From: a virus
Length of the DNA stretch: 64,000 bases
Virus record (IMG/VR): IMGVR_UViG_3300045988_159685
Strand: one strand, 5' to 3'
The notes under the pieces were generated by a model that saw only the letters and a program-made list of their open reading frames with translations, ran no database searches and was not told the origin of the DNA. Below are positions 837-25,791 of this stretch, in pieces. How positions within the stretch are numbered: the first letter of the stretch is position 1; the number at the start of each line of letters is the position of its first letter. Position numbers and translations under genes: made by a program.

Positions 837-2423
837 CTACTCATTCTCTGTAAGATATTCAGATTTATTAATATTTGAACTCCAAATAACTATTTCTTGA
901 TTTTCAGCAGTGTTGCCTGTTAATGAATTTGTAGAGGTTAGCCATTCCCCATTAAATAGGCTTTTCACGCCAGCTCCAATCTTAATCAAAGACAGGTTTG
1001 ATCCATACCTGTTGCAAGCATTGCGGAAGTTCATATAATCAGGAAAATTAAGATAATGCTCGCCGCTTATTACAAGACCTGACTCTTTTTTAACTGGCGT
1101 ATCTGAAATATCTATACCAACTTCAGAAAGTATCGAATTGAAACTTGCATTTACCGATTCATCTGTATAAATATTGCATGCAGGATACATTCTTGACTGA
1201 ACATATTCTGTATGATCCTTATTTATCATAAATAACTGCCTAAATATTTTATCGTTCTTATAGTAATCATTGTCAGAACAATTTTTATCAAGCCCATATG
1301 TAATAACGGTTACATCATCATTTGCATATGATAAACATCCAGCGTGCCAACCACCACGATTTTTAAAACTGTGACACGATGACCAACTGTTGCCATGTGA
1401 CATTGTAACAAAATCACATATATTTAGTGATACTACAAATTTAACCTGTAGAGGCCTTAAAGCCATGGCATCAAAACATTTTGCCGAGGCTTTGTTATAC
1501 TCCGTCCTATCGGCTAATTTGAATTTTTTCATAATTGCATTTATATTTCTACTAGCCTTTGCATTGACATTCATATCATCGTCATTTAAGCCGATTCTAT
1601 TTAAGTATTCTTTTATATTTCTATATGAGGATTCAACAAAACGAATACAATTGTCAACCGATTTGTAACTATACGAACTTGAAACTATAGCTGCTATGTA
1701 ATCATATACTGACAAGGTTTGACGTGAAAATACAGGTGATTCCGCAGACATTGTTTGGAATAATTCGCGAGCCGCAAACGCAACTACGTTATTATCTACA
1801 TTACGATTGATTGGCAAGTCAATGGCAATACATTTTTCTTTATCATTCCACTGCGGATGTTCTCTAAACAATGCAATTAAATCCTTTTTGGCTTCATACC
1901 AAGTTTTAAATTCGTTATAAATGTATTTATCTTTTGCCTGAGGATAATAGGTCTTTATTAATTTGTAGAAACAATCATAATTATACTTAAGATTGGAGTC
2001 CATCCAATCGGCGTTTTCTTCAATTGGTTCTTCAACAAATTTATAAGCTTTAAATGAGAGACTGCCATCAGAATAAATATACGGACGCCTTTTAAGTACA
2101 CCGTCCTGATAATATGAAAAAGTCTTTCTGCCAGATCCATATACAACAACTTTTTTATTTGTTCTACTAAGAATAACTGCGTCACCTGGAAGAAGTAACC
2201 TTGTATGCTGACCAGTAATGAAAACATATTTGTCCCCTAATATCTCATGCCCAAATACTTCTGCATCATACCATCGTCGAGCTACTATTTGTTTAGTTGC
2301 ATCAATGATAAGTGGTTTTTTAAAGTTTCCAATAAGTTTTGATTCACCAACTGTTACATATTCATCATTTTCATTTTTTTCAATATCATAGCCATAAACA
2401 CGTCCACAAAGTCTTATATACAT
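837..2423 (-). CDS. large Cys/His-motif protein, paralog A (function unknown)
   Basis: 528-aa ORF with RBS AAAGGAAG. It shares the blocks REHPQWNDKEKC / RKHPNWDEKNLC and SLNICDFVTMSHGNSWSSCH..WHAGCLSY / SVNPCDFLKMSYGEGWDSCH..YHAGTQSY with 5011-6897. Confidence 0.7.
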   Translation of the reverse strand: MYIRLCGRVYGYDIEKNENDEYVTVGESKLIGNFKKPLIIDATKQIVARRWYDAEVFGHEILGDKYVFITGQHTRLLLPGDAVILSRTNKKVVVYGSGRKTFSYYQDGVLKRRPYIYSDGSLSFKAYKFVEEPIEENADWMDSNLKYNYDCFYKLIKTYYPQAKDKYIYNEFKTWYEAKKDLIALFREHPQWNDKEKCIAIDLPINRNVDNNVVAFAARELFQTMSAESPVFSRQTLSVYDYIAAIVSSSYSYKSVDNCIRFVESSYRNIKEYLNRIGLNDDDMNVNAKASRNINAIMKKFKLADRTEYNKASAKCFDAMALRPLQVKFVVSLNICDFVTMSHGNSWSSCHSFKNRGGWHAGCLSYANDDVTVITYGLDKNCSDNDYYKNDKIFRQLFMINKDHTEYVQSRMYPACNIYTDESVNASFNSILSEVGIDISDTPVKKESGLVISGEHYLNFPDYMNFRNACNRYGSNLSLIKIGAGVKSLFNGEWLTSTNSLTGNTAENQEIVIWSSNINKSEYLTENE

Positions 2424-2478
2424 TTTTTATACTTCCTTTCGGTATTATTTACCGCATAGCATATACGGCATTGGCGGA

Positions 2479-2802
2479 TTAAACCGCCCTGCTCGCCTTG
2501 ATTTTATCATTGGCAATTTTAAATATTTTGAGGTAATATTCCAACCTTGCTTTTTTAATTTCATTATCGCCACACCATCGCATCTGCTTTTCAAGCTCAA
2601 TTATTAATTGAGGTATCGTGTAATTATCTTTTATAGTATTACAGTCGTGGCAGCATACAACTAAATTACTGACCTCGTCTTTACCACCTTTTGATACAGG
2701 TATGATATGGTCAAGCGTTTTATCTGATTTGATATACTTCCCACAATAAAAGCAGAAATCAGAATCTACCTCTTTGCGTACTTGTTCTGTGTAGTTTCGC
2801 AT
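2479..2802 (-). CDS. HNH endonuclease (small, free-standing)
   Basis: CFYCG..LDHIIPVSKGG..SNLVVCCHDCNTIK gives a CxxC / H-N-H / CxxC pattern. The start is placed at ATG 2802, directly after the terminator hairpin. In-frame ATGs at 2844, 2877 and 2904 are alternatives. No clear RBS. Confidence 0.7.
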   Translation of the reverse strand: MRNYTEQVRKEVDSDFCFYCGKYIKSDKTLDHIIPVSKGGKDEVSNLVVCCHDCNTIKDNYTIPQLIIELEKQMRWCGDNEIKKARLEYYLKIFKIANDKIKASRAV

Positions 2803-2807
2803 ATAAT

Positions 2808-2838
2808 AAAAAAAAAGAGGGCGACTAACGCCGCCCTC
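2808..2838 (-). terminator. rho-independent terminator after 2849-3565
   Basis: The minus strand reads GAGGGCG-GCGTTAGT-CGCCCTC followed by T9. Confidence 0.6.
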
Positions 2839-2848
2839 GTACATGTTG

Positions 2849-3565
2849 TTATCTAATGCCTCTGCTGTCGATTTCATGATTGATGAATTTCTGCAAATCA
2901 TCATATGTCATAGCGGCAATAGTATCATCGAGACCATACTCATCGTCACATGTTGACACTGGGTAAATCTTGTTTGCCTCGCAGATCATCTGATCAACAT
3001 TGCAATAATCGTCGCCATACTTTGTAGGATTGTCAACCGCAGTTCTATAAACCTCTACAATATCATAGTCGCTATTTGACACATGCTCCAGGGTGTCATT
3101 GTCAAACTTGGAAAGCCATGTAAAGCTGTTATTAGCTGTATGATATCTAACAATATCGCCGAACTCTGCGCCCTTAAATACTGTAGACCTCTTGCCGTTT
3201 CTATGAACAAGCATATCACCTGTTTTAAGGGAGTCGATTGTTATATCGTCGCCGTTAGCCTCGGCTGTAGCTCTGTCGTAAACAACTGTGCCGTACTCCA
3301 GCATCTTAAGTGGATTAAAAACAAGGTCGCCAATCTTATTGCTTGCAACGCCTATAGCACGATAAACCTTAACAATTGTCAGTCCATCTGCTCTCTTGTT
3401 TGTCATATCTGAATTGTAGTTTACGCCGAGTCTTGAGAATGAATTAAACTCAGTATGGAAGCGAAGCACATCTTCTCTAGCTGTGCCCTTCATAACTGTT
3501 GCCATCTTACCGTTTGCACATATAACGAGGTCGCCTGTCTTAAGATTAGAAATTGTAAATGTCAT
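2849..3565 (-). CDS. tandem-repeat protein (two ~115-aa repeats, each starting LKTGD(L/M)V..NGK), function unknown
   Basis: RBS AAGGAGA lies 7 nt before ATG 3565, so the ORF-track start 3649 is rejected. Internal duplication: ISNLKTGDLVICANGKMATVMKG..RFHTEFNSFSRL..IVKVYR versus IDSLKTGDMLVHRNGKRSTVFKG..RYHTANNSFTWL..IVEVYR. Confidence 0.65.
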   Translation of the reverse strand: MTFTISNLKTGDLVICANGKMATVMKGTAREDVLRFHTEFNSFSRLGVNYNSDMTNKRADGLTIVKVYRAIGVASNKIGDLVFNPLKMLEYGTVVYDRATAEANGDDITIDSLKTGDMLVHRNGKRSTVFKGAEFGDIVRYHTANNSFTWLSKFDNDTLEHVSNSDYDIVEVYRTAVDNPTKYGDDYCNVDQMICEANKIYPVSTCDDEYGLDDTIAAMTYDDLQKFINHEIDSRGIR

Positions 3566-3689
3566 AAAAATATCTCCTTTTAAATGTTTTAATATTAGTG
3601 TCATTTGAATTGATATGTAGCGCTTTTTATTCTGGTGGACTACGACCATGAATAATCATGTTTATCACCCCCTCCGTTCGTCGTTAGAC

Positions 3690-5009
3690 TTATTTACATA
3701 TCGCAACAGAAATTTCACTTTCTGGTTTGAAAGTTTCACAATCTGTCTCGTCGTTTGCTTCTCCCGGATACATTGCGTCGAGGAGTATCATCATAAAATC
3801 ATCACTAAGATTTGTGCAATATGTCATATCATAAATTGACAAATTCATTATATAGTCATTTATTTTTTCTATATTTTCATAAAACGCCCAAGGCATTTCC
3901 ATTGAATCCTCTTCGCGATAACTTATTAGATCGCCTTTATCATCAACCAGTTTATACTGTTCTTGTAAAGGATAATATAGAGCTGTATCTTCATCAAGGC
4001 CATATATTGTGCCGTCTTTATCAATCACATATTCATCCAGTGATTCAGTTGGCTTACTATCTGGCTCATTAAAGTTCTTTAAATAAACCTTGCTGTTTGG
4101 CACGCAAAGTTTCTTGTGAAAAATGCTACTATAAAGATCTAAGCCTAGCTGCGGTTCTTCGTCATAGAAATCGCTGACTGAATTTTTTGCTTTGCCGCCG
4201 CCATAATAATCCTCAATTTTAAACTGTCCATCTTTGTCATCGCTTTTTTGTTTTTTAATGTCATTACTGGCACTATAAAAATCATAGCCGTAATATCGCC
4301 CATAAAGGCCTGAATAATCATACTTGATTTTAACCTTTTCAATGTATTCATATCTTGGCGTTTCAGTATTGATGAGCACCATTGCACGCTTGATATTATT
4401 CTCAACATCTTCAAGGTTAATATATTCGTGCTGGGTATGAGGTGAATAGTACCCACTCGACAGATTAACGGCTGCAACCTTTAAATGCGGCGCAACGTGG
4501 CTTATATCACTACAACTACCCCATGCACTTTTGAAACCAACATCTGGATTTGTAATAAATTTTTCAAATTCATCATTATCACAATCGTAAAACACGGCGT
4601 CGTTTCCACTTTTTCTGTCAAACTCGATAATATAATTGAGTTTTTCTGGTACATATGAGGATTTGCAAAATTTTCTGGCTCCAACGCAACCAATTTCTTC
4701 ATCCTCGGTGAAGATTACTGAGCAATGAACGTCTTTGACAATTTGTAATATCATATAGATACCACAACGGTCATCACCTCCGATACCCTGTGGTGACATT
4801 ATATACTTGCCGTCTTCGGAAACGCACACAATCGTACAGTTATCATGATGTACGGTATCCATATGTGCCATTAGTAATACTGGATGCGTACCCTCTGCAT
4901 ATATGTAGCCGTCTTCATTTACAGGCGAATAACCTAAATTTTGAAGTTCTACAAAAAGCCTTTCTTTAAGCTTATCCTGTGGTAGTTTGCAAATCTCAAT
5001 AATATTCAT
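3690..5009 (-). CDS. M20 (peptidase T-like) dinuclear metallopeptidase domain fused to a ~220-aa C-terminal region of unknown function
   Basis: Motifs MAHMDTV, GIGGDDRCG, FTEDEEIGCVGA and SSGYYSPHTQHE resemble the PepT/M20 metal ligand blocks (H-D-E-E/D-H). RBS AGAGGTGG. Confidence 0.6.
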   Translation of the reverse strand: MNIIEICKLPQDKLKERLFVELQNLGYSPVNEDGYIYAEGTHPVLLMAHMDTVHHDNCTIVCVSEDGKYIMSPQGIGGDDRCGIYMILQIVKDVHCSVIFTEDEEIGCVGARKFCKSSYVPEKLNYIIEFDRKSGNDAVFYDCDNDEFEKFITNPDVGFKSAWGSCSDISHVAPHLKVAAVNLSSGYYSPHTQHEYINLEDVENNIKRAMVLINTETPRYEYIEKVKIKYDYSGLYGRYYGYDFYSASNDIKKQKSDDKDGQFKIEDYYGGGKAKNSVSDFYDEEPQLGLDLYSSIFHKKLCVPNSKVYLKNFNEPDSKPTESLDEYVIDKDGTIYGLDEDTALYYPLQEQYKLVDDKGDLISYREEDSMEMPWAFYENIEKINDYIMNLSIYDMTYCTNLSDDFMMILLDAMYPGEANDETDCETFKPESEISVAICK

Positions 5010-5010
5010 A

Positions 5011-6897
5011 TTAGTCCACCTCTTTTATTCCATCAATATCAACTATACATACATACTTGTCGTCAACATTAAGTGCACATAACGTATGTTCAGCACCATC
5101 GTACATCCACTTAAAAGTTTTTATTATTGTTCCAAAAATATTAAGATCATAGTAGCATTCACAAGCTTTTCTATCAAAAAGCTGTAATGTTGGAAACATC
5201 TCTTTTGCACTAAGAAAACGTATAAAAATTAAACCCTTTTTTGAAACAAAAACTTTTTTGCCAGCAATAAGTTTCTTTTCACGGCAATCTTTACACAATC
5301 CGTCAACTAACGAATTGTTACCATAAAACGCTTGATGACAACAATTACATTTATGAACACGATGCGGGGCATATAAAACATCATGTTCTTCGTCGTAACC
5401 CGCATAATTATCTACTTCTCTTACATAAAAATACTCATTGGTAATATCGTCAATAAAAAATGCCTCCTGTGTGCTCCAATCTTCCCCCTCATCACAATCG
5501 TCGCATATCATATTTCCTGAATTGCAAAGTTCATCGCCGCATTTCAAACACCAAGAACTATGCCCAATTGTAATATCATCGCCATCCCATATACTATCAA
5601 AAGCGTACAGATTAGTATTGTATTGCTCATAATTATAGTCTGGATAATGCAATGAGTTTTCCGCCGCGCAGATATGACTATGATCCACTTTTCTATACTC
5701 GTTTTTTATACCAAGACAATTGGATATTGCTTGCGAAACAAAATATGTATAAGTTGCGTCGCGCTGAGGTAACTTATAATTTGGATAGTTACGAGATTGC
5801 AATAGAAGCCCGTTCTGAAAACAATAAATCTGTCTTGTCAGCTTGTTGTTTTCCCATGGCTCGCCTACATATTGGTTTGACAAAGTATAAAAAATCATGC
5901 TCGAAGAATCCATTATATAAGACTGCGTTCCTGCATGATAACAACCGTGGTGCCCTACATGGTGACATGAATCCCATCCCTCACCATATGACATTTTTAG
6001 GAAGTCGCATGGATTTACTGAGAGTATTGCCACCTGCGTGTTTTTTAATGGGTTTACGGCATCGGCAATCACCGCAAAATCGTGATTGTAGTTTGGGTAT
6101 TTATCAAGTCCCATATCTACAAAAATCTTGTTAAGTTCACGAGAATACTTGGCCCCAACGGTCATATGTACGCCAACCGCCTCATACCTTTCTTTTATCT
6201 CCTTAGTAACAAACTGCTGTGGTTGGGTACACTGCACACCATCCCACATTATGTCTAATTGTTTGTCTGTCAGATACATACCGTTTTCACGGCAATTATG
6301 GTAAAATTCTTTACAAGCTTTAAGAAAGTCGTTACCGTCCTTTACACGAGTTTCTTCTACCTCACCTTTAATGCAAAGATTTTTTTCATCCCAATTAGGA
6401 TGTTTCCTCAATATAGAAAGCAGTTCTGCTTTGTTTGTAAAGAATTCATTAACGATATCGACAATAACGTCTTTATTATACTCGTAGCTTGCATCGTCAA
6501 GAATACTGCACATATTATTTACAATATCCATGCGTTCACAAGAACCCTGTGGTTCTTTTTCATGAGGCTTCATTGGAGCAAAAAACGTAAGCTCATCAGC
6601 TTCAGGTGAAATATAATGATATAAAGCCGATTCACCATTATTTTTTTCATATGTAAATGTTGCCGTAGAATCAATAACGTGTTTGGCTATTTTACATACC
6701 TTAACTTTTCTGCCGTTCTTACGCAGAACGATAGTGTCACCAATCTCAAAGAGGTTTTCACTAAGTTCACTGCGGTTATAGATTTCTCCCGACATCATAT
6801 AAACTTCGTCGCCTGCTATCTTCCTTATTCTGCCGATATACTCTCCACAACGAACAAGCTCAAATCTTCTTAATGTTTTAAATTTTTCTTCCGTCAT
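5011..6897 (-). CDS. large Cys/His-motif protein, paralog B, with Cys-rich (CxxC-rich) C-terminal extension
   Basis: 628-aa ORF with RBS AAGGAG. Conserved blocks shared with 837-2423. The C-terminus carries CLKCGDELCNSGNMICDDCDEG and CNCCHQ..CKDC clusters. Confidence 0.7.
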   Translation of the reverse strand: MTEEKFKTLRRFELVRCGEYIGRIRKIAGDEVYMMSGEIYNRSELSENLFEIGDTIVLRKNGRKVKVCKIAKHVIDSTATFTYEKNNGESALYHYISPEADELTFFAPMKPHEKEPQGSCERMDIVNNMCSILDDASYEYNKDVIVDIVNEFFTNKAELLSILRKHPNWDEKNLCIKGEVEETRVKDGNDFLKACKEFYHNCRENGMYLTDKQLDIMWDGVQCTQPQQFVTKEIKERYEAVGVHMTVGAKYSRELNKIFVDMGLDKYPNYNHDFAVIADAVNPLKNTQVAILSVNPCDFLKMSYGEGWDSCHHVGHHGCYHAGTQSYIMDSSSMIFYTLSNQYVGEPWENNKLTRQIYCFQNGLLLQSRNYPNYKLPQRDATYTYFVSQAISNCLGIKNEYRKVDHSHICAAENSLHYPDYNYEQYNTNLYAFDSIWDGDDITIGHSSWCLKCGDELCNSGNMICDDCDEGEDWSTQEAFFIDDITNEYFYVREVDNYAGYDEEHDVLYAPHRVHKCNCCHQAFYGNNSLVDGLCKDCREKKLIAGKKVFVSKKGLIFIRFLSAKEMFPTLQLFDRKACECYYDLNIFGTIIKTFKWMYDGAEHTLCALNVDDKYVCIVDIDGIKEVD

Positions 6898-6915
6898 TTT
6901 AAGACACTCCTTTTT

Positions 6916-7146
6916 TTATTTACCCATTAGAGGCATTACAAATTTAATAAATGTTATAGGATTAACATTTTGTCTTTCACATTCAGATATGATATCTTCC
7001 ATGTGCGTTGTTTTTGGTCTACATTTCGCTATTCGTTTCATAATGTAACGAAAAAGCAAATAGGTATGCGGGCTATTAATTTCCTTTATTTTTTCAAGCA
7101 AATCCAGGTATCGCTTAAAAAAGAAAACACTTTTTTCCAACCTCAT
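6916..7146 (-). CDS. hypothetical protein (76 aa)
   Basis: ORF with strong RBS AGGAGGTG. Confidence 0.5.
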   Translation of the reverse strand: MRLEKSVFFFKRYLDLLEKIKEINSPHTYLLFRYIMKRIAKCRPKTTHMEDIISECERQNVNPITFIKFVMPLMGK

Positions 7147-7164
7147 ATATTCACCTCCTAAAAA

Positions 7165-7425
7165 TTAAAGCGCTCTGCCGTCAAGGGATTCAAGCATGTA
7201 TAAATCAAAGACATAGTCATAATTAATGCCGAGTAAGTATCCATCATAACCATCAAAATCGTCTTCAAAAGCATCTATCGTGGTTTCTTCGCCACAAAAA
7301 TTATACATGTAACCAGCAAATGTATGTCCTACCTCAATTGCCCCATTTTTATCGTGTGGTTCTACAAACTCACACAATAAATCTTTGCACCGCCTAATCC
7401 GAACCCTATCTCCAATTTTAGTCAT
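7165..7425 (-). CDS. small paralog family member
   Basis: MTKIGDRVRIRRCKDLLCEF..FCGEE..LYMLESLDGRAL; RBS AGGAGA. Confidence 0.7.
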   Translation of the reverse strand: MTKIGDRVRIRRCKDLLCEFVEPHDKNGAIEVGHTFAGYMYNFCGEETTIDAFEDDFDGYDGYLLGINYDYVFDLYMLESLDGRAL

Positions 7426-7440
7426 ATCATCATCTCCTAT

Positions 7441-7737
7441 TTAATTTTCAGCAATAAGGCTACCGTCAAGGCGTTCTAACATATATGCGTTAAAATTGAA
7501 ACTGCACGCTTCATCTATACGAAAAATGTCATAACTTCCATCTATCAGAAACAGATTAATTATTTTGTGTTCCTCTCCACAGTATTTGCACATGGCGTCA
7601 ACAAAAGAACTATCCTTCTCAATTAAGATACCCCAATTACCAAACATTTCAACGCCGTCATACATTTCGATGTCTATATATTCACAGGCTAAATCTTTTA
7701 GTCGTCTAACCCTGATTTTGTCTCCAACTTGCAACAT
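7441..7737 (-). CDS. small paralog family member
   Basis: MLQVGDKIRVRRLKDLACEY..YCGEE..AYMLERLDGSLIAEN; RBS AGGAGG. Confidence 0.7.
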   Translation of the reverse strand: MLQVGDKIRVRRLKDLACEYIDIEMYDGVEMFGNWGILIEKDSSFVDAMCKYCGEEHKIINLFLIDGSYDIFRIDEACSFNFNAYMLERLDGSLIAEN

Positions 7738-7752
7738 ATCACCGCCTCCTAT

Positions 7753-8052
7753 TTAATTTTCAGCAATAAGACTGCCATCGAGATGTTCTAACATATACGC
7801 GTTCAAATTGAAAGGACATTTATACGCAGAAAAAACGGCACAACCTCTATATGGAGAATGGCGCGAATTTATTACGAGCTCCTGCCCACAAAAGACACAC
7901 ATGCTATCAATAAAAAAGCTTCCTTTGTCAATCAGAGCTATACATTCGCTACCAGTTCCGGATCCGATTAGTTTATACCTTTCAATATTCATGTGTTCAC
8001 AGGCTAAATCTTTTAGTCTTCTAACTCGAACTTTGTCACCCACCTGTATCAA
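7753..8052 (-). CDS. small paralog family member (TTG start)
   Basis: RBS AGGAGGTGG lies inside the ORF-track N-terminus and is followed 7 nt later by TTG at 8052. The product (M)IQVGDKVRVRRLKDLACEH..FCGQE..AYMLEHLDGSLIAEN is closely related to 7441-7737. Confidence 0.65.
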   Translation of the reverse strand: MIQVGDKVRVRRLKDLACEHMNIERYKLIGSGTGSECIALIDKGSFFIDSMCVFCGQELVINSRHSPYRGCAVFSAYKCPFNLNAYMLEHLDGSLIAEN

Positions 8053-8084
8053 AACAGTACCACCTCCTATCAAATAAATAATTG

Positions 8085-8588: not shown

Positions 8589-8912
8589 CTACACCCATAA
8601 TTGATTATCCAACTCTTCCAAATCTTCTTCAGTATATTCTCTAACGTTTTTTCCACATCTTTCAAACATATATTCTGCAAAGGCAAAAGGCAATTCTCGA
8701 CCACAATTAGTTTCAAGCCTATAAATATTATGATTGCAGAAGTAAAAATCCTTTATAAAGAATTCTTTTCCGCAATATGGAATCATGCTTTTGATGAAAT
8801 GAATATATCCGAAAATCAATGCGTTACCACAATACTGTGGAGACGGAGTTTCAAACTCGCACCGCATATCCTTAAGAGATCTTATTCGCACTTTGTCGCC
8901 TATCTGATACAT
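8589..8912 (-). CDS. small paralog family member
   Basis: MYQIGDKVRIRSLKDMRCEF..YCGKE..EYMFERCG; RBS AGAGGTGA. The 5' end lies in a 45-bp perfect repeat. Confidence 0.7.
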   Translation of the reverse strand: MYQIGDKVRIRSLKDMRCEFETPSPQYCGNALIFGYIHFIKSMIPYCGKEFFIKDFYFCNHNIYRLETNCGRELPFAFAEYMFERCGKNVREYTEEDLEELDNQLWV

Positions 8913-8932
8913 TAAAAATCACCTCTTTTCAA
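8888..8932. repeat. 45-bp perfect direct repeat, copy 1
   Basis: gcactttgtcgcctatctgatacattaaaaatcacctcttttcaa is identical at 9158-9202 (period 270 nt). It spans the first codons, RBS and upstream stop of adjacent paralogs. Confidence 0.9.
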
Positions 8933-9182
8933 ACATATATTCCTCAAAAGTAGATAAAAGAGGGGCTCTATTTATGGTTTCAAGTAGATAACATTTACGC
9001 CCATCCACATATCTTAGTTGACGAATATGATATTGCTGCCCACAAAAAATAACCATGTACTTTAAAAAACCTGTCCCTTTTCTTATTAATAAATTCCCAA
9101 CATAGTACGGCGGCATCGTTTCATATTCACACAGCATATCTTTTAAACGCCTCATTTGCACTTTGTCGCCTATCTGATACAT
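8919..9182 (-). CDS. small paralog family member
   Basis: MYQIGDKVQMRRLKDMLCEY..FCGQQ..EYMFEKR; same RBS as 8589-8912. Confidence 0.7.
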   Translation of the reverse strand: MYQIGDKVQMRRLKDMLCEYETMPPYYVGNLLIRKGTGFLKYMVIFCGQQYHIRQLRYVDGRKCYLLETINRAPLLSTFEEYMFEKR

Positions 9183-10380: not shown

Positions 10381-10912
10381 TATGCACACCTCCAATTTTG
10401 TATGGAATCTGAGTTACTCCAAGTTTTTTTGCGGCAATGTATCTGGCATAGCCGTCTTTCAAAATTTTGTTGCCCTTAGCATCAAGCTTTATAGTTATGG
10501 GGTTATCGAAAATTCCATAATATTTATAGAAACAGATAGCCCTGTCCACCTTTTCTTTCTTTGGCGGATGATTCATAAAGTCTCTGGGTATGTACACTTT
10601 ATCTACATCTATGAGCTTTTTGAAGTTGCTCATAAAAGCGGGGCGACTAATGTTTACAACTATCGCATTTATAGTTGCTACGCCATCACGCTTGGAGATT
10701 TCGTAATCTCTTCGACCTGTAATCAAAGAATATGTATCACGGGAATTTCGCCGCACAATTACAACGAGGTTGTCTTTTGTGCCGAGTTTTTCAGTGTCGA
10801 TACTCTTCTTGTGTACACTATCTGTCAGCATGATGTTCCTAACTGGTATAGGAATCGCCTGCGCCGCCATTCTTGACCTGAAATTTTTTATATTGTTAAA
10901 ACAGTACGCCAT
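10361..10912 (-). CDS. ParB/sulfiredoxin-like domain protein (two ParB-N-like halves)
   Basis: VVIVRRNSRDTYSLITGRRDYEISKRDGVATINAIVV resembles the ParB N-terminal pattern (IxVR..x..Y.(I/L)I.G.RR..A....G...I.A.V). A second half reads KILKDGYARYIAAKKLGVTQIPYKI. RBS AGGAGG. Confidence 0.5.
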   Translation of the reverse strand: MAYCFNNIKNFRSRMAAQAIPIPVRNIMLTDSVHKKSIDTEKLGTKDNLVVIVRRNSRDTYSLITGRRDYEISKRDGVATINAIVVNISRPAFMSNFKKLIDVDKVYIPRDFMNHPPKKEKVDRAICFYKYYGIFDNPITIKLDAKGNKILKDGYARYIAAKKLGVTQIPYKIGGVHNAKNRQ

Positions 10913-10941
10913 AATTTCTACCTCCTATTTTTTATAATGGC

Positions 10942-11017
10942 TGGTGTGCCATTCGGGATTTGAACCCGAGACCTTTCGATTAAAAGTCGAATGCTCTACC
11001 AATTGAGCTAATGGCAC
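10942..11017 (-). tRNA. tRNA-Lys (anticodon UUU), copy 1
   Basis: GTGCCAT..ATGGCAC-A-CCA. Anticodon stem TTCGA/TCGAA, loop CTTTTAA, T-arm TCGGG-TTCAAAT-CCCGA. Confidence 0.85.
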
Positions 11018-11149
11018 ATAGACCGCCGTGGCGGTCAGCATTGTAACCCATGGTTACACAGATTACAATTTAATTACAAAGTGGTGACATAATTCAATCG
11101 ACCGTGTTACTTAAATGTAACTCGCAAGCTTTTTAGCTTGCATTTGAAT

Positions 11150-11190
11150 AAAAAAAATAACGACGGATTAACCAAAGTTGACCCGTCGTT
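11150..11190 (-). terminator. rho-independent terminator (minus strand)
   Basis: The minus strand reads AACGACGG-16 nt loop-CCGTCGTT, then A and T8. Confidence 0.5.
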
Positions 11191-11291
11191 AAATATATAA
11201 AATGGACACTTTTCAGCCTTGTGGATAACCTACGGTCAAGTTATGACGCACCTTAACCAAACTCAAGGGTTTTGTAAAATCTTAATTGTTG

Positions 11292-11370
11292 TGCTTTAAG
11301 ATTTAAGCTTTAGACGATTATAAGCTTTGAACTTTCGTAATTAAATTTTCAGCTTTATGCCTTAAGCTTT
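11292..11370. repeat. five iterated (A/T)AGCTTT(A/G) motifs
   Basis: GCTTT cores start at 11293, 11307, 11324, 11352 and 11366. A related hairpin gcaagct-ttt-agcttgc lies at 11124-11140. Confidence 0.5.
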
Positions 11371-11377
11371 ATCTTAT

Positions 11378-11419
11378 TACTCGTACAGGAATTGAACCTG
11401 TAATGCAACCAGTCGAGCA
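11378..11419 (-). pseudogene. tRNA-like remnant (acceptor + T-arm minihelix, no anticodon arm, no CCA)
   Basis: The minus strand reads TGCTCGA-CTGGTTGCATT-ACAGG-TTCAATT-CCTGT-ACGAGTA. It resembles the 5' and 3' ends of the Glu-like tRNAs. Confidence 0.35.
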
Positions 11420-11581
11420 ACAAAACATTCCCACAAAAAAGGAATATCATATATCTTCGTATAGACTACGATAGCTATTACTTATATTTGAGGCCAGATT
11501 TTTATTATTTTACTTTGTGAATATAGCCTAAAACACAAAGGTCATAAAATTAAAGGTTTTCAAAAAGCACCCATTTTTTGC

Positions 11582-12223
11582 TTAGTACGAAATTTCGATT
11601 TCGGTTATAGCGTTCGATACGCTGATAGCCGAGTCAAAATCAATCTTAAACTTGTCTATACGATCGACAAGGTCAGAAATGATTTCGGCAGTGTCAAAAC
11701 CCTCGATAATTTCAAAAGTGTTCGCCTTTATGAAATTGGTTTTCGCCTCCTCTATTTCCTTTGTAACAGCTTTACCGTCTTTTGAACCAAACATTCCAAG
11801 TACATACTCATCGGCACGCCCCTGTAATGTTTCGCCGTTCTCATAATTACATCTGTCCTGTGCAGCTTTAAGCTGTTTAGACATATGCTTCAAAAGATCT
11901 TCCTCAAATTCAATGCCGTGATTCTTATACTCTATAGCCTCGGCAATAGTCAGTTTCATACCCTGTATTGTGACTTCGGTCTCGGCATTTGAAAGCGTAA
12001 CGGCACGCTTAATTGCCTTACGCCTTTTTATAAGGTCGGCTATTTTGTCATAGCTCGCCTTGAAGCCATTCTTAGCTTCTTCAATAGAGACGCCATTTAT
12101 CTTTGTGTTGCTATGTTTGTTCTCAACCACAAATTTTGCATCTTTGATAAGGGCGGGTATCCTCTTATCGAGAATCTTAAGCTCACAAAGTGCCTGATGA
12201 ATCGTCATTTTTTCGTTAGTCAT
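11582..12223 (-). CDS. hypothetical protein (213 aa, helical/coiled-coil-like)
   Basis: ORF with RBS AAGGAG. Confidence 0.6.
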   Translation of the reverse strand: MTNEKMTIHQALCELKILDKRIPALIKDAKFVVENKHSNTKINGVSIEEAKNGFKASYDKIADLIKRRKAIKRAVTLSNAETEVTIQGMKLTIAEAIEYKNHGIEFEEDLLKHMSKQLKAAQDRCNYENGETLQGRADEYVLGMFGSKDGKAVTKEIEEAKTNFIKANTFEIIEGFDTAEIISDLVDRIDKFKIDFDSAISVSNAITEIEISY

Positions 12224-12277
12224 TTCAAAAACTCCTTTGAATTTTAAAATTTACAGACCTGATTATGCCTGTATTGA

Positions 12278-12337
12278 TGGTGGCTCACACAGGATTTACA
12301 CCTGTACTCTCACTGGGGATAAGAGTCTATTTGAGCC
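12278..12337 (-). pseudogene. 60-nt truncated tRNA-like element (no D-arm), CCA-ended
   Basis: The minus strand reads GGCTCAA-ATAG-ACTCT-(11-nt loop)-AGAGT-ACAGG-TGTAAAT-CCTGT-GTGAGCC-A-CCA. Confidence 0.35.
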
Positions 12338-12390
12338 ATAGCGATGCAAAGCATCGCACTCAGAAAAAGAAGGGAATGCCCAAAACGGGC

Positions 12391-12466
12391 TGGTGACTCA
12401 CGCAGGATTTGAACCATGCAATTCCGCCCTGAGAAGGCGGCGTCTTAACCGTTTGACCAGTGAGCC
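12391..12466 (-). tRNA. tRNA-Glu-like, anticodon CUC (copy B), bulged T-stem
   Basis: GGCTCAC..GTGAGTC-A-CCA. Anticodon stem CCGCC/GGCGG, loop TTCTCAG. The T-arm GCA(T)GG-TTCAAAT-CCTGC needs one bulged nucleotide. Confidence 0.55.
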
Positions 12467-12490
12467 ATAAGGCGGAGAACTCCGCCTATA

Positions 12491-13435
12491 TTACTTTTCT
12501 TTAAAGGTTGGCGAACAGCTCTCAAAGAATTCTTTTACGTTGACATTGTATTTCTCAAGAATCGCAACGATAACTTTTTGTACCTTGTCCCATTCGTCAT
12601 CTTTGATATACTGAATATACGGTGTCTTGCGATTGCCACGCTTTTTGAGGTCAATCCCGTAGCGATAACTAAGCTGCTTATATAGCATACTGAAAGCCAC
12701 GCCGAAACTGATATGCAAAGTCGAAGCAAACTTACGCATAACTCTGTTGAACATTTTGCGGTCTGAAATATGTAAGACCTCGGCTGTTAAAAGCTTGTTT
12801 GACGTTTCAATTCTGTCGATATGACGCCGCTGAAACGCCGTGTAAGCCTGGGCGGCTGTCGCAAATTCCATGATATCACCCGTGGCAAAAGCCTTGCCGA
12901 TTGCCGCTTGGAGCTTTTCTTCGTCGTCGATATCTTGCGTGAGAAGTTCGGGCTTTTCCTCGGCGGTGTGTTCGACAATGTTTAGGAGCTGTGTCCTGAC
13001 CTCTTGGGCTATCTTGCTATCACGAAGAAGCATGCCTATTCTGAGGATGGCACGCTTTGAGAAACACTTGATGCCTCGGTTTGGGATTTCAAGGTGGGTA
13101 TTATCGTCGATTTGGATAACAAGTTTGCCGTTTTGTTGCTCAAAATTCTTAAAGGTACAACTTGTACCTTTAAGAATTTCTTTAAAGATTGTAGGCGTTT
13201 TAGTTGCAACGCCATCACCCTCAATCTCAGTGCGGTTTCGCTGACAACAACGCTTTATAGTATCAATATCAACCTCATAATAATCCGCCACCTGCCTAAT
13301 AGTCATACAGTTCATCTCAGGTATCAAAAGCAGCTTCTTAACCTTATCAAGAACCTCAGTTCTGGCAATAAGCTCGTTTCTGAGGTCATGGTTGTCTACC
13401 ATGCTTTCGCTCGTGATGATTTTACTTTCTGGCAT
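12491..13435 (-). CDS. HTH DNA-binding regulator (antirepressor/Rha-like layout)
   Basis: MTIRQVADYYEVDIDTIKRCCQRN looks like a helix-turn-helix. The central KRAILRIGMLLRDSKIAQEVRTQLLN segment resembles those of Firmicutes phage antirepressor-type proteins. RBS GAGGAGGTG. Palindromic operator-like repeats lie upstream. Confidence 0.5.
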   Translation of the reverse strand: MPESKIITSESMVDNHDLRNELIARTEVLDKVKKLLLIPEMNCMTIRQVADYYEVDIDTIKRCCQRNRTEIEGDGVATKTPTIFKEILKGTSCTFKNFEQQNGKLVIQIDDNTHLEIPNRGIKCFSKRAILRIGMLLRDSKIAQEVRTQLLNIVEHTAEEKPELLTQDIDDEEKLQAAIGKAFATGDIMEFATAAQAYTAFQRRHIDRIETSNKLLTAEVLHISDRKMFNRVMRKFASTLHISFGVAFSMLYKQLSYRYGIDLKKRGNRKTPYIQYIKDDEWDKVQKVIVAILEKYNVNVKEFFESCSPTFKEK

Positions 13436-18446: not shown

Positions 18447-19235
18447 ATGAGACATTACAAAATCAAGCACGCCCAGCAGGTATTCAGTGGTTCGACCGCC
18501 CCAAAACTTAAGTGCAACGTTATCGACATTGGCGACGCTGTAAAACCAAAGCGACCCGAAATTGAGAAGCGTCCACGCAACAATTCACCGTACACCTCAC
18601 ATGGCAAACCCAAGGCAACCCCTGGCGATCCAATTCGAGACATGGCGGATATTCAAAAGGCAAAAGAGTTCTTGCTCAACAACGGTAAGACTAGACGCAT
18701 CAGACTTCGTAACTACATGTTCTTCACCCTTGGCATTTCAACGGGACTCCGTGGTGGCGACTTAGTTAAAATCAAGATTGGCGATGTGATTACTGAGGGC
18801 GGTAGATTTAAAAGCTATATCAGCTTGTTCGAGGAAAAGACCTCTAAACACAACAATCCAAAGCTTAATTCATCATGCCGTGAAGCAATCAAGACATATC
18901 TCGACTACATCGGCGACTACTCCCTTGAAGACTATCTGTTCAAATCCGAGAAAGGCGGTTGTCTTGACCAATCACAAATCTATAGAATCATTCATTCGCT
19001 TCAAACCGACCTTGGGCTACCATACCACTTGAGCGCACATAGCCTCAGAAAGACCTTTGGCTACTGGACAATAAAGATGCACCCCGACGATTCAAGAGCT
19101 CTTGTGACACTCCAGAGAATGTTAAATCACGATTCACCCGAGACTACACTGATTTACTGCGGAATAACTCAAGACGACAAAGACGCATTCTACGATGACA
19201 TGGATACACTGTTCGATGAGGCTACAACCATATAA
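18447..19235 (+). CDS. short tyrosine recombinase (catalytic domain only, no SAM-like N-domain)
   Basis: GLRGGDLVKIKIGDV (Arg I), HSLRKTF (HxxR), LNHDSPETTLIY (H..Y). RBS AAAGGAGA. Confidence 0.8.
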   Translation: MRHYKIKHAQQVFSGSTAPKLKCNVIDIGDAVKPKRPEIEKRPRNNSPYTSHGKPKATPGDPIRDMADIQKAKEFLLNNGKTRRIRLRNYMFFTLGISTGLRGGDLVKIKIGDVITEGGRFKSYISLFEEKTSKHNNPKLNSSCREAIKTYLDYIGDYSLEDYLFKSEKGGCLDQSQIYRIIHSLQTDLGLPYHLSAHSLRKTFGYWTIKMHPDDSRALVTLQRMLNHDSPETTLIYCGITQDDKDAFYDDMDTLFDEATTI

Positions 19236-24774: not shown

Positions 24775-25791
24775 ATGTCAAAGGTATCAAAACTTCCGCC
24801 TGTTACGCAGGAAGAGTGGAACAAAGTAAACGACTTTAACAAATTTATATTTGAAGATTTTATAACGAACAGCACAGAGCTATCGCCTAAAACAAAAATT
24901 GCTTATGAGTCAAATTTAAAAATTTGGTTTATTTGGGTCAAAGATAATCTTAATAACAAATCTCAGATCGACATTAAACCTTTAGACTTTAAGCGTTTTC
25001 AAAACTGGATGGTCAACCGTGGTTGTTCAAGTGCAGATTGTGCAAACAAAAGAGCGGCAATTAGCTCGCTTAATAATTACATAGATGTTTACTATAGGGA
25101 CGATTATCCACAATTTCGCAATTTTATTAATAAGAGTATAGCACGACCGCCAAAGGCTTTTGTAAATGAGAAGCAACCACTGACGAAAGAGGAATTTGCA
25201 AATCTTATTTCTGTTCTCGAAAAACGTGGTGATTGGCAAAAGGTTGCCTATCTTAAATTTACATTAGATACAGGATGTCGCCGTGCTGAGAGCATACAAG
25301 TGAAAAAGGATTTTGTAAACATCAAGCCGACCATAAAACACAAAACCCATATTGACGAAAATGGTAACGAAGTAACAAAAGAGATTAAGTATTATGTTAC
25401 CCCTACTATTCGTTGTAAAGGAAAGGGTACGGTTGGTAAAGAAAGAAAGTTTAAATTCTCACAGGATACAATGGATGCATTTAAGAAGTGGATTGAAGTT
25501 AGAGGTGAAGACGATTGCCCAGACATGTTTATTTCTAAATATGCCGGAAAAGTAAAAGGCATAGCAGAGAACACGTTAAACAATTGGGCTACTCATGTAT
25601 TTACACCTATCGTCGGCAGACGCTTTCATCCGCATCTTCTAAGAGAGTCTAAGGCAACTCAGCTTGCAGTCGAAGAAGGAAAAGACATTTCTGTAATCCA
25701 AAGTCTATTAGGCCACGAGTCATCAGAAACTACACAAATTTATATAATCCGTGACGAAACCGATGACCTCGACGAGTTGTTTGAAGAGTAG
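24775..25791 (+). CDS. tyrosine recombinase/integrase (XerC/D-like, with SAM-like N-domain)
   Basis: TGCRRAESIQV (Arg I), HPHLLRES (HxxR), LGHESSETTQIY (H..Y). RBS AAAGGAGA. Confidence 0.8.
   Translation: MSKVSKLPPVTQEEWNKVNDFNKFIFEDFITNSTELSPKTKIAYESNLKIWFIWVKDNLNNKSQIDIKPLDFKRFQNWMVNRGCSSADCANKRAAISSLNNYIDVYYRDDYPQFRNFINKSIARPPKAFVNEKQPLTKEEFANLISVLEKRGDWQKVAYLKFTLDTGCRRAESIQVKKDFVNIKPTIKHKTHIDENGNEVTKEIKYYVTPTIRCKGKGTVGKERKFKFSQDTMDAFKKWIEVRGEDDCPDMFISKYAGKVKGIAENTLNNWATHVFTPIVGRRFHPHLLRESKATQLAVEEGKDISVIQSLLGHESSETTQIYIIRDETDDLDELFEE

Follow-up and report, generated by a model that had tools for sequence, protein, structure and literature searches.

An unnamed mobile-element protein family linked to a lid-less M20-type hydrolase points to a widespread two-part enzyme

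What do two large proteins without a name, placed on either side of a peptidase gene in a tailed phage, do for the element that carries them? This question is raised by positions 837-6897 of a 64,000-nucleotide (nt) stretch of the IMG/VR virus record IMGVR_UViG_3300045988_159685, the stretch that was analysed as a whole and is here called the window. Terminase, portal and tape-measure genes on the plus strand identify the window as a tailed phage, and the block at 837-6897 sits in the divergent, non-structural arm on the minus strand. An earlier note, made from the sequence alone, described five genes in the block: two paralogs, here called A and B, and between them a peptidase of the M20 type, a protein with tandem repeats and an HNH gene. 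The coordinates of the open reading frames (ORFs), all on the minus strand, match this layout (Table 1). Our analysis points to a widespread two-part enzyme, composed of a protein of the A/B family and a stripped-down zinc peptidase, whose genes are linked by adjacency or by fusion.

Two paralogs from a large unnamed family

A and B align by BLASTP with an E-value of 9e-28 and 28% identity across ~300 residues. The alignment holds all the blocks from which paralogy had been proposed, namely REHPQWNDKEKC / RKHPNWDEKNLC, SLNICDF...SCH...HAG..SY and RQ(L/I)(F/Y)...QSR.YP, and the proposal therefore stands. A tree of the core region, computed without support values, places A and B in separate clades that are not sisters, each with its own orthologues (for B, P0016, P0017 and P0018). 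Judged by their sequences, the two paralogs diverged anciently within one large unnamed family. In B, a phage-specific N-terminal extension (residues 1 to ~130) precedes the core, and the additional CxxC pairs that had been ascribed to this paralog are indeed present, at residues 450-538. A has no such pairs and no zinc ribbons, and is without a peptidase gene of its own; it has its own ribosome-binding site (GAAAGGAAG) and all the invariant residues of the core. The N-terminal extensions of A and B, compared directly with the repeat protein and with a neighbouring family of small proteins, are related to neither.

A profile search of 1.84 billion representatives retrieved 4,757 clusters of the family (50% identity) at E<=1e-3 and 1,076 at E<=1e-30, while word-based searches with A and B recovered only 11 and 13 clusters. 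The typical member is 450-550 residues long and is composed of the core and a tail of several zinc ribbons, and members are all annotated as 'hypothetical protein'. Neither A nor B has a match in Pfam, PHROG, NCBIfam, the PADLOC models or PDB sequences, and the core region has no Pfam match in any of 86 members scanned individually (76 at E<=1 and 10 at E<=0.1). Among the 76 members, zinc-finger and zinc-ribbon families alone recur, and they do so in the tail; a match to SelO in three of the 76 was taken as noise. Likewise, a profile of the family matches only zinc-finger/LIM chains in the PDB, with the matches confined to the zinc-ribbon tail.

The core is strongly conserved among 192 family members below 70% identity. 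In particular, D337, C350, G362 and Y413 are kept in 100% of these members, S332, M341, S342, W347, S365, Y366, D369, R395 and P414 in at least 98% (R395 in 99%), and H351 in 96%, and a Gly-rich loop lies ahead of a helix (G357...G362). The many near-invariant polar residues form a pattern that suits an active site or ligand site better than a scaffold. The earlier note had singled out invariant C, S-C-H and H-A-G residues as a possible catalytic or metal site; the conserved polar block is upheld by the larger alignment, but the Cys of 'NxCDF' is kept in 44% of the members and the His of 'HAG' in 10%, and these two residues are thus not family-wide.

The AlphaFold model of A has a mean predicted local distance difference test (pLDDT) score of 75, with most of the core at 80-96, and the model of the B core alone reaches a pLDDT of 90.5 and a predicted template-modelling (TM) score of 0.82. 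In the Foldseek search with whole A, the matches were mostly of small beta-barrels to the low-confidence N-terminus, and because these dominated, the search was repeated with the core-only model. Neither search identified a solved fold in the PDB, the best E-values being 0.28 for the A model and 0.37 for the B core (TM<=0.33). The only significant structural matches to the A model are three phage proteins in BFVD, A0A249XZU6, A0A249Y195 and A0A6J5QY37 (Foldseek E=8e-13 to 8e-9), which have neither a name nor an assigned function. Two of the three are 335 and 623 residues long, the lengths of family paralogs in Enterococcus phage EF1, to which they are linked by length alone and not by accession.

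Three resemblances were considered for the core and set aside. A GNAT/Fem-type transferase fold recurs among the weak matches only (4u9v, 9mto, 5zgn, 1xf8, 7z5y, 1tiq and 5hmn, with E-values of 0.4-4.3), and for the B core model these matches are at noise level (probability <=0.28, TM <=0.33). A reading of SCH / SY / QSR as the H-Y-E triad of ADP-ribosyltransferases was dropped, as no ADP-ribosyltransferase structure appeared in either fold search. A resemblance to the 'PCH ... SY' motif of thymidylate synthase was dropped as well, as the order of the motifs differs and no thymidylate synthase fold was matched.

The partner hydrolase and its linkage to the family

The gene that follows B encodes the peptidase, hereafter the hydrolase. 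The TAA stop codon of B and the ATG of the hydrolase are 1 nt apart, and the ribosome-binding site of the hydrolase (AAAGAGGTGG) is located within the last codons of B. The earlier note had recognised an M20 (PepT-like) core fused to a C-terminal half that it could not place, and both parts of this description hold. The core, residues ~1-230, is supported by PHROG peptidase families (1e-31 to 1e-32), by matches of a PDB profile search and by Pfam matches that fall just under the cut-offs (M20, 23.9 bits against 24.6; M28, 21.2 bits against 21.3). The score against the PepT-like model of NCBIfam is 35 bits, with a cut-off of 274. Scores below the Pfam and NCBIfam cut-offs indicate that the hydrolase is a divergent relative of M20 enzymes rather than a regular member.

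A profile of 29 partner hydrolases matches PepT-type tripeptidases first in the PDB (3gb0, 3e-9; 3rza, 2e-8), followed by carboxypeptidase G2 (CPG2) and the M42 peptidase TET. The profile aligns to residues 69-167 and 319-370 of PepT only, and the lid/dimerisation domain of ~150 residues that lies between them (~168-318) has no counterpart. The hydrolase thus shares the catalytic domain, ~230 residues, with Peptidase T / M20B (3gb0, 3rza, 1fno) and CPG2 (1cg2) of the MH clan. Specifically, the M20 di-zinc and catalytic set (H-x-D, bridging D, E-E, D, H) is intact, with H49, D51, D79, D80, E104, E105, D131 and H191 invariant in 59 of 59 hydrolases and also in the 29-sequence alignment. Unlike PepT, the hydrolase lacks the lid/dimerisation domain, carries a variable C-terminal extension, and is always paired or fused with a family protein.

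The C-terminal half (residues 236-439) matches only related phages by tblastn, at ~37% identity or more. Near its end is a 'VID..G.(I/V)Y' element that appears, by eye and not by a statistical match, to be shared with the plasmid-type partners P0027, P0028 and P0260. The Tyr/Asp/Gly-rich linker that follows the M20 core (window positions 4110-4320, residues ~230-300) is also present in the EF1 locus (L110, 5843-6949), and hence in two very distant phage lineages.

The linkage of family gene and hydrolase was surveyed in 66 loci from metagenome contigs and IMG/VR viral contigs by all-against-all protein clustering. Only two clusters are nearly universal: that of the family, present in 64 loci, and that of the peptidase, present in 59; the next cluster is found in 21. 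In tblastn searches, a peptidase core with 39-73% identity lies directly 3' of the family gene wherever there is sufficient downstream DNA. The same adjacency is present in 39 loci from isolate genomes and metagenome-assembled genomes (MAGs) of Oscillospiraceae, Gemmiger, Subdoligranulum, Lachnospiraceae and Erysipelotrichales, and in a single MAG of Paludibacteraceae. Among 77 non-redundant family ORFs, about 54 are adjacent or fused to a peptidase, with gaps mostly between -47 and +27 nt; a further 14 are extra paralogs on the same strand, within 4.2 kb of a peptidase, and the remainder are contig ends or fragments. Between phage and plasmid-type versions, the partner is 55% identical (E=7e-91), compared with ~30% for the family protein.

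Furthermore, the two proteins occur as a natural fusion of 800 residues, in which one stretch (residues 20-444) resembles B (4e-43) and a second (residues 477-713) resembles the peptidase (51% identity, 1e-83). The fusion clusters are seen on 78 and 292 contigs, and the sequence of the fusion was followed on at least 24 contigs, which come from different samples. A test of co-occurrence between paralog and M20 peptidase, as the earlier note had proposed, thus finds the pair in nearly all loci examined, in one lineage as a single polypeptide. In other loci the pair is multiplied: L052 (8001-14338) holds two complete family-hydrolase pairs in tandem, and L020, L024, L027, L033, L041 and L064 each hold two family copies and one hydrolase.

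The block had also been suggested to work as a whole. Its genes are linked, and related phages with 86-99%, ~50% and ~35-40% identity have the same order, B-hydrolase-repeat protein-HNH-A. More distant phages (L023, L054 and L056) have a B-like gene, the hydrolase, the repeat protein and the HNH gene, without A. Most loci retain only the family-hydrolase pair, however, and the repeat protein and the HNH gene are therefore lineage-specific additions rather than parts of a common set.

The pair is found in phages of gut Bacillota, in plasmid-like elements and in lytic Enterococcus phages. In the plasmid-type loci, one of which is on the 142-kb Vescimonas fastidiosa plasmid pMM35_02, the gene order is YodL, PcfK-like/AcrIIA9-family, PcfJ, LigA, family gene and hydrolase, with ParM close by. 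AcrIIA9 itself carries a PcfK domain (PMC6739104). In the isolated Enterococcus phages EF1, EF5, VRE9 and H1 (~140 kb), three family paralogs surround one hydrolase, an arrangement that parallels the two paralogs and single hydrolase of the window. The EF1 hydrolase, of 368 residues, is again a lid-less M20 enzyme and has its own C-terminal CxxC pair. Among the EF1 paralogs, the SCH motif reads SCM in one protein and TCY in a second, and the Cys persists. The family was detected in none of 400 other Bacillota species genomes sampled, which fits a patchily distributed cargo of mobile elements.

Possible function of the pair

The lid of M20 enzymes helps to bind the substrate, as in PepV, DapE and CPG2. 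The absence of the lid from the hydrolase, together with its obligate partner, suggests that the partner takes over the substrate-binding role of the lid. The interpretation that we favour, with moderate confidence, is that the family protein and the lid-less di-zinc amidohydrolase are the two subunits of one enzyme, deployed when the element establishes itself. B and the hydrolase are the canonical, translationally coupled pair, and the two proteins would form a heteromeric enzyme. The family core, usually accompanied by a zinc-ribbon tail, would provide a pocket lined by D337, the MS.G..W.SCH loop, G..SY..D, R395 and Q.R.YP. It would stand in for the absent lid, selecting or presenting the substrate, and the di-zinc site would cut an amide bond; the core may also contribute a second, Cys-based catalytic step, with Cys350 as the candidate residue. 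Paralog A is most likely an additional family copy that works with the same hydrolase. As phages and plasmids carry the pair among their early or establishment genes, the target is most probably some part of the host that the element encounters as it enters, in the course of counter-defence or host takeover.

A more far-reaching version, which we put forward tentatively and regard as doubtful, holds that the family core is a new catalytic fold that docks on a lid-less M20 hydrolase to form a previously unknown enzyme of two subunits, with which phages and plasmids of gut Bacillota disable a component of host immunity or housekeeping at entry, and that paralogs retarget the hydrolase. The action could be, for example, the trimming or modification of a protein N-terminus or of a peptide- or amino-acid-containing signal, and extra paralogs (A in the window, three in EF1) would steer one hydrolase to different substrates.

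Several points weigh against the two-subunit interpretation. Neither sequence nor fold reveals a biochemical function, as the core matches no solved structure and no curated family. We infer the heteromeric complex and the replacement of the lid, and the counter-defence role is drawn solely from gene neighbourhood. All the fusions fall in a single lineage. The change of the His of SCH in remote paralogs (SCM, TCY) means that a Cys-His dyad is not universal. Finally, the lack of any family member found in the 400 sampled genomes implies that selection acts at the level of the mobile element, and leaves no host phenotype as a guide.

Should the two proteins make up a composite enzyme, this would represent a new catalytic fold and a new route to specificity among M20 enzymes, in which a separate partner protein replaces the lid domain. 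If the pair is an effector of counter-defence or takeover, it would be a common one, for which the Enterococcus phages offer a culturable system. The family comprises thousands of clusters without a name, a domain model or a structural relative, and in phages, plasmid-like elements and lytic Enterococcus phages alike it is tied to a metallohydrolase whose site is intact. This size and this tie to the hydrolase make it a clear, testable gap in our understanding of how mobile elements become established in gut Bacillota. Among the papers available to search, none describes the family or its pairing with the hydrolase.

The arrangement of the pair is conceptually similar to that of ArdC-type antirestriction proteins, which join a single-stranded DNA-binding domain to a metalloprotease, and of the polyvalent proteins that phages and conjugative elements encode. 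In both, a metallohydrolase is fused or adjacent to a targeting module, in entry or establishment regions with YodL-type genes nearby. No homology is claimed: the protease of ArdC is a zincin, in contrast to the M20 exopeptidase-type fold of the MH clan in the pair. The survey of polyvalent proteins that treats the YodL context (Iyer et al. 2017, PMC5512222) does not mention PcfJ, M20, M28 or aminopeptidase.

Among the alternatives, we consider it unlikely that the pair serves as a module of the defence, exclusion or toxin-antitoxin type, shielding its host cell or its element from rival phages and plasmids rather than attacking host defences, with the zinc-ribbon family protein sensing or restraining and the peptidase acting as effector, or the reverse. 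The pair does have the form of a tightly coupled two-gene operon, patchily distributed on mobile elements, and several paralogs per hydrolase could be alternative sensors. Toxin-antitoxin genes (RelB/PIN, PemK) and a KAP NTPase gene are also carried by plasmid loci, but the neighbours of the pair are entry and establishment genes (primase/YodL, PcfK/AcrIIA9, LigA) rather than defence islands. In addition, neither A, B, the peptidase and the repeat protein nor typical family members have a credible match in PADLOC-DB 2.0. The 140-kb Enterococcus phages that carry the pair are of the strictly lytic type, in which genes for defence are uncommon as cargo, and a fused form would be unusual under toxin-antitoxin logic.

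Somewhat less likely still is a set for modification of nucleic acids or nucleotides, an idea raised in the earlier note, in which a Cys-dependent core would modify bases or nucleotides, with DNA or RNA bound by the zinc ribbons, and the M20 enzyme, as a deacylase or amidohydrolase, would trim an amino-acid-containing adduct. No similarity to a known nucleic-acid enzyme fold or family was found by PDB profile, Foldseek or Pfam searches, and no other genes for modification, such as kinases, hydroxymethylases or transferases, recur nearby in the 66-locus clustering. Plasmids that replicate with host enzymes rarely hypermodify their DNA, which also speaks against such a set, although LigA is adjacent in the plasmid loci. 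The features that are consistent with it are the invariant Cys, the many conserved Arg, Lys, Ser and Tyr residues, the Gly-rich loop before a helix, and the arrays of zinc ribbons. M20 enzymes, moreover, often act on non-peptide amides (DapE, ArgE, CPG2).

That A and B are divergent PcfJ-like proteins (PF14284), a resemblance that the earlier note had suggested with caution, is very improbable. PcfJ resembles the family in that it has no assigned function, resides on mobile elements of Bacillota, and occurs in the same plasmid gene clusters, where true PcfJ genes lie 2-4 kb upstream of the pair. By eye, the motifs of the PcfJ C-terminus (L.HHCVG.Y ... ILFLR ... FYTVEV ... VVQVRG..N) also follow the order of those in the family core, loosely arranged around a conserved Cys, and the best hhalign path repeats this register over 153 columns. 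However, PF14284 has no match at E<=1 in A, B or 76 members taken singly, and none at E<=0.1 in 10 further members, whereas the model recovers true PcfJ proteins of the plasmid-type loci at 1e-35 to 1e-41. The hhalign probability is 0.9% against two sequences of true PcfJ taken from these loci and 0.6% (P=0.1) against a 45-sequence alignment of the PcfJ domain, compiled from the loci and from genomes. These values are no better than the controls: the real score of 17.2 is below that of the reversed profile (18.9), and one of 39 shuffles scored higher, with a maximum of 20.1. No PcfJ structure is among the PDB fold matches of the A model and the B core. The true PcfJ genes are separate neighbours in the plasmid-type loci, not members of the family.

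Finally, it is scarcely credible that the two genes are co-transcribed cargo with independent functions, a general aminopeptidase for nutrient or peptide turnover and an unrelated zinc-ribbon regulator. The M20 core alone could be active, and its interaction with the family protein is a proposal, but the two genes stay neighbours in phages and plasmids alike, at family identities of ~25-30%; their start and stop codons are coupled, and a fused form has been maintained. The hydrolase also lacks the lid on which M20 enzymes normally depend to bind their substrate.

Gene layout and neighbouring genes

The features of the block, the neighbouring small genes and the EF1 locus are collected in Table 1.

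Table 1. Coordinates of features in the window, with the EF1 locus for comparison
Feature	Position	Strand	Remarks
Paralog A (528 residues)	837-2423	minus	Core 1014-1928; S-C-H at 1371-1379
HNH endonuclease, free-standing	2479-2802	minus	107 residues, from M35 of a longer 141-residue ORF
Intrinsic terminator	2807-2838	minus	9-bp stem with 7 GC pairs (hairpin 2838-2817), GAGGGCGGC-GTTA-GTCGCCCTC, then T9
Repeat protein	2849-3565	minus	Two repeats of ~115 residues, each beginning LKTGD..NGK; lineage-specific accessory gene
Hydrolase, whole gene	3690-5009	minus	439 residues
Hydrolase, C-terminal half	3690-4319	minus	Tyr/Asp/Gly-rich low-complexity linker, then a small domain
Hydrolase, catalytic core (residues 1-230)	4320-5009	minus	Lid-less M20/PepT-like di-zinc domain
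Paralog B (628 residues)	5011-6897	minus	Canonical family member: N-terminal extension, core, C-terminal zinc ribbons
B, Cys-rich zinc-ribbon region (C450-C538)	5284-5550	minus	Several CxxC pairs; family-typical, not in A
B, conserved core (residues 135-432)	5602-6495	minus	Alpha/beta domain; S-C-H motif at 5962-5970
Small-protein family members	493-828, 7165-7425, 7441-7737, 7753-8073, 8589-8912, 8919-9182	minus	
EF1 locus (L110, MF001358)	1558-7981		399 residues - peptidase - 335 residues, plus a 623-residue copy

The intrinsic terminator, which the earlier note had placed directly before the HNH gene, is present just past the stop codon of the repeat protein, where it closes the transcription unit of B, the peptidase and the repeat protein. 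The start of the HNH gene was set at 2802, because the terminator follows the stop of the repeat protein and the 141-residue ORF would run through it; homologs of 107-111 residues agree with this choice. The HNH gene scores above the curated thresholds of HNH_5 (PF14279; 50.7 bits, 1.7e-13, cut-off 27.5) and of the Pfam HNH family (PF01844; 43 bits, 5e-11, cut-off 21.4), and matches many PHROG HNH families. It is probably a lineage-specific, mobile gene of the homing type.

The two LKTGD..NGK repeats reported for the repeat protein are recovered by internal comparison, with 32% identity and an E-value of 6e-12. Its start is most likely 3565 and not 3649, judging from homologs of 238-252 residues. 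Homologs of the repeat protein come after the peptidase in 15 loci, including L001-3, L007, L023, L054 and L056; scans of Pfam and PHROG gave no family assignment. By megablast, the block as a whole has no match among GenBank phages.

The block is flanked on the minus strand by small proteins of 86-111 residues that start with M..(I/V)GDKVR(I/V)RRLKDL.CE and form an expanded family (pairwise E-values of 1e-5 to 8e-29), which shows no relation to the repeat protein. Elsewhere in the minus-strand arm, the gene at 11582-12223 matches a PHROG 'tail fiber protein' family (3e-50), which is odd within a non-structural region. Beside the packaging genes on the plus strand are two tyrosine-integrase-like genes, at 18447-19235 and 24775-25791 (PHROG integrase, 4e-41 and 1e-35); the phage may be temperate, or these genes may be Xer-like resolvases.

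In different elements, the pair has a gene for PemK toxin, RelB/PIN or KAP NTPase no more than a few kb away (L001, 15210-15626; L004, 13468-14195; L067, 13890-15758). The related phage contig L007 carries, at 10629-12554, an RNA-ligase gene split by an intein (RNA_ligase - Intein_splicing - RNA_ligase).

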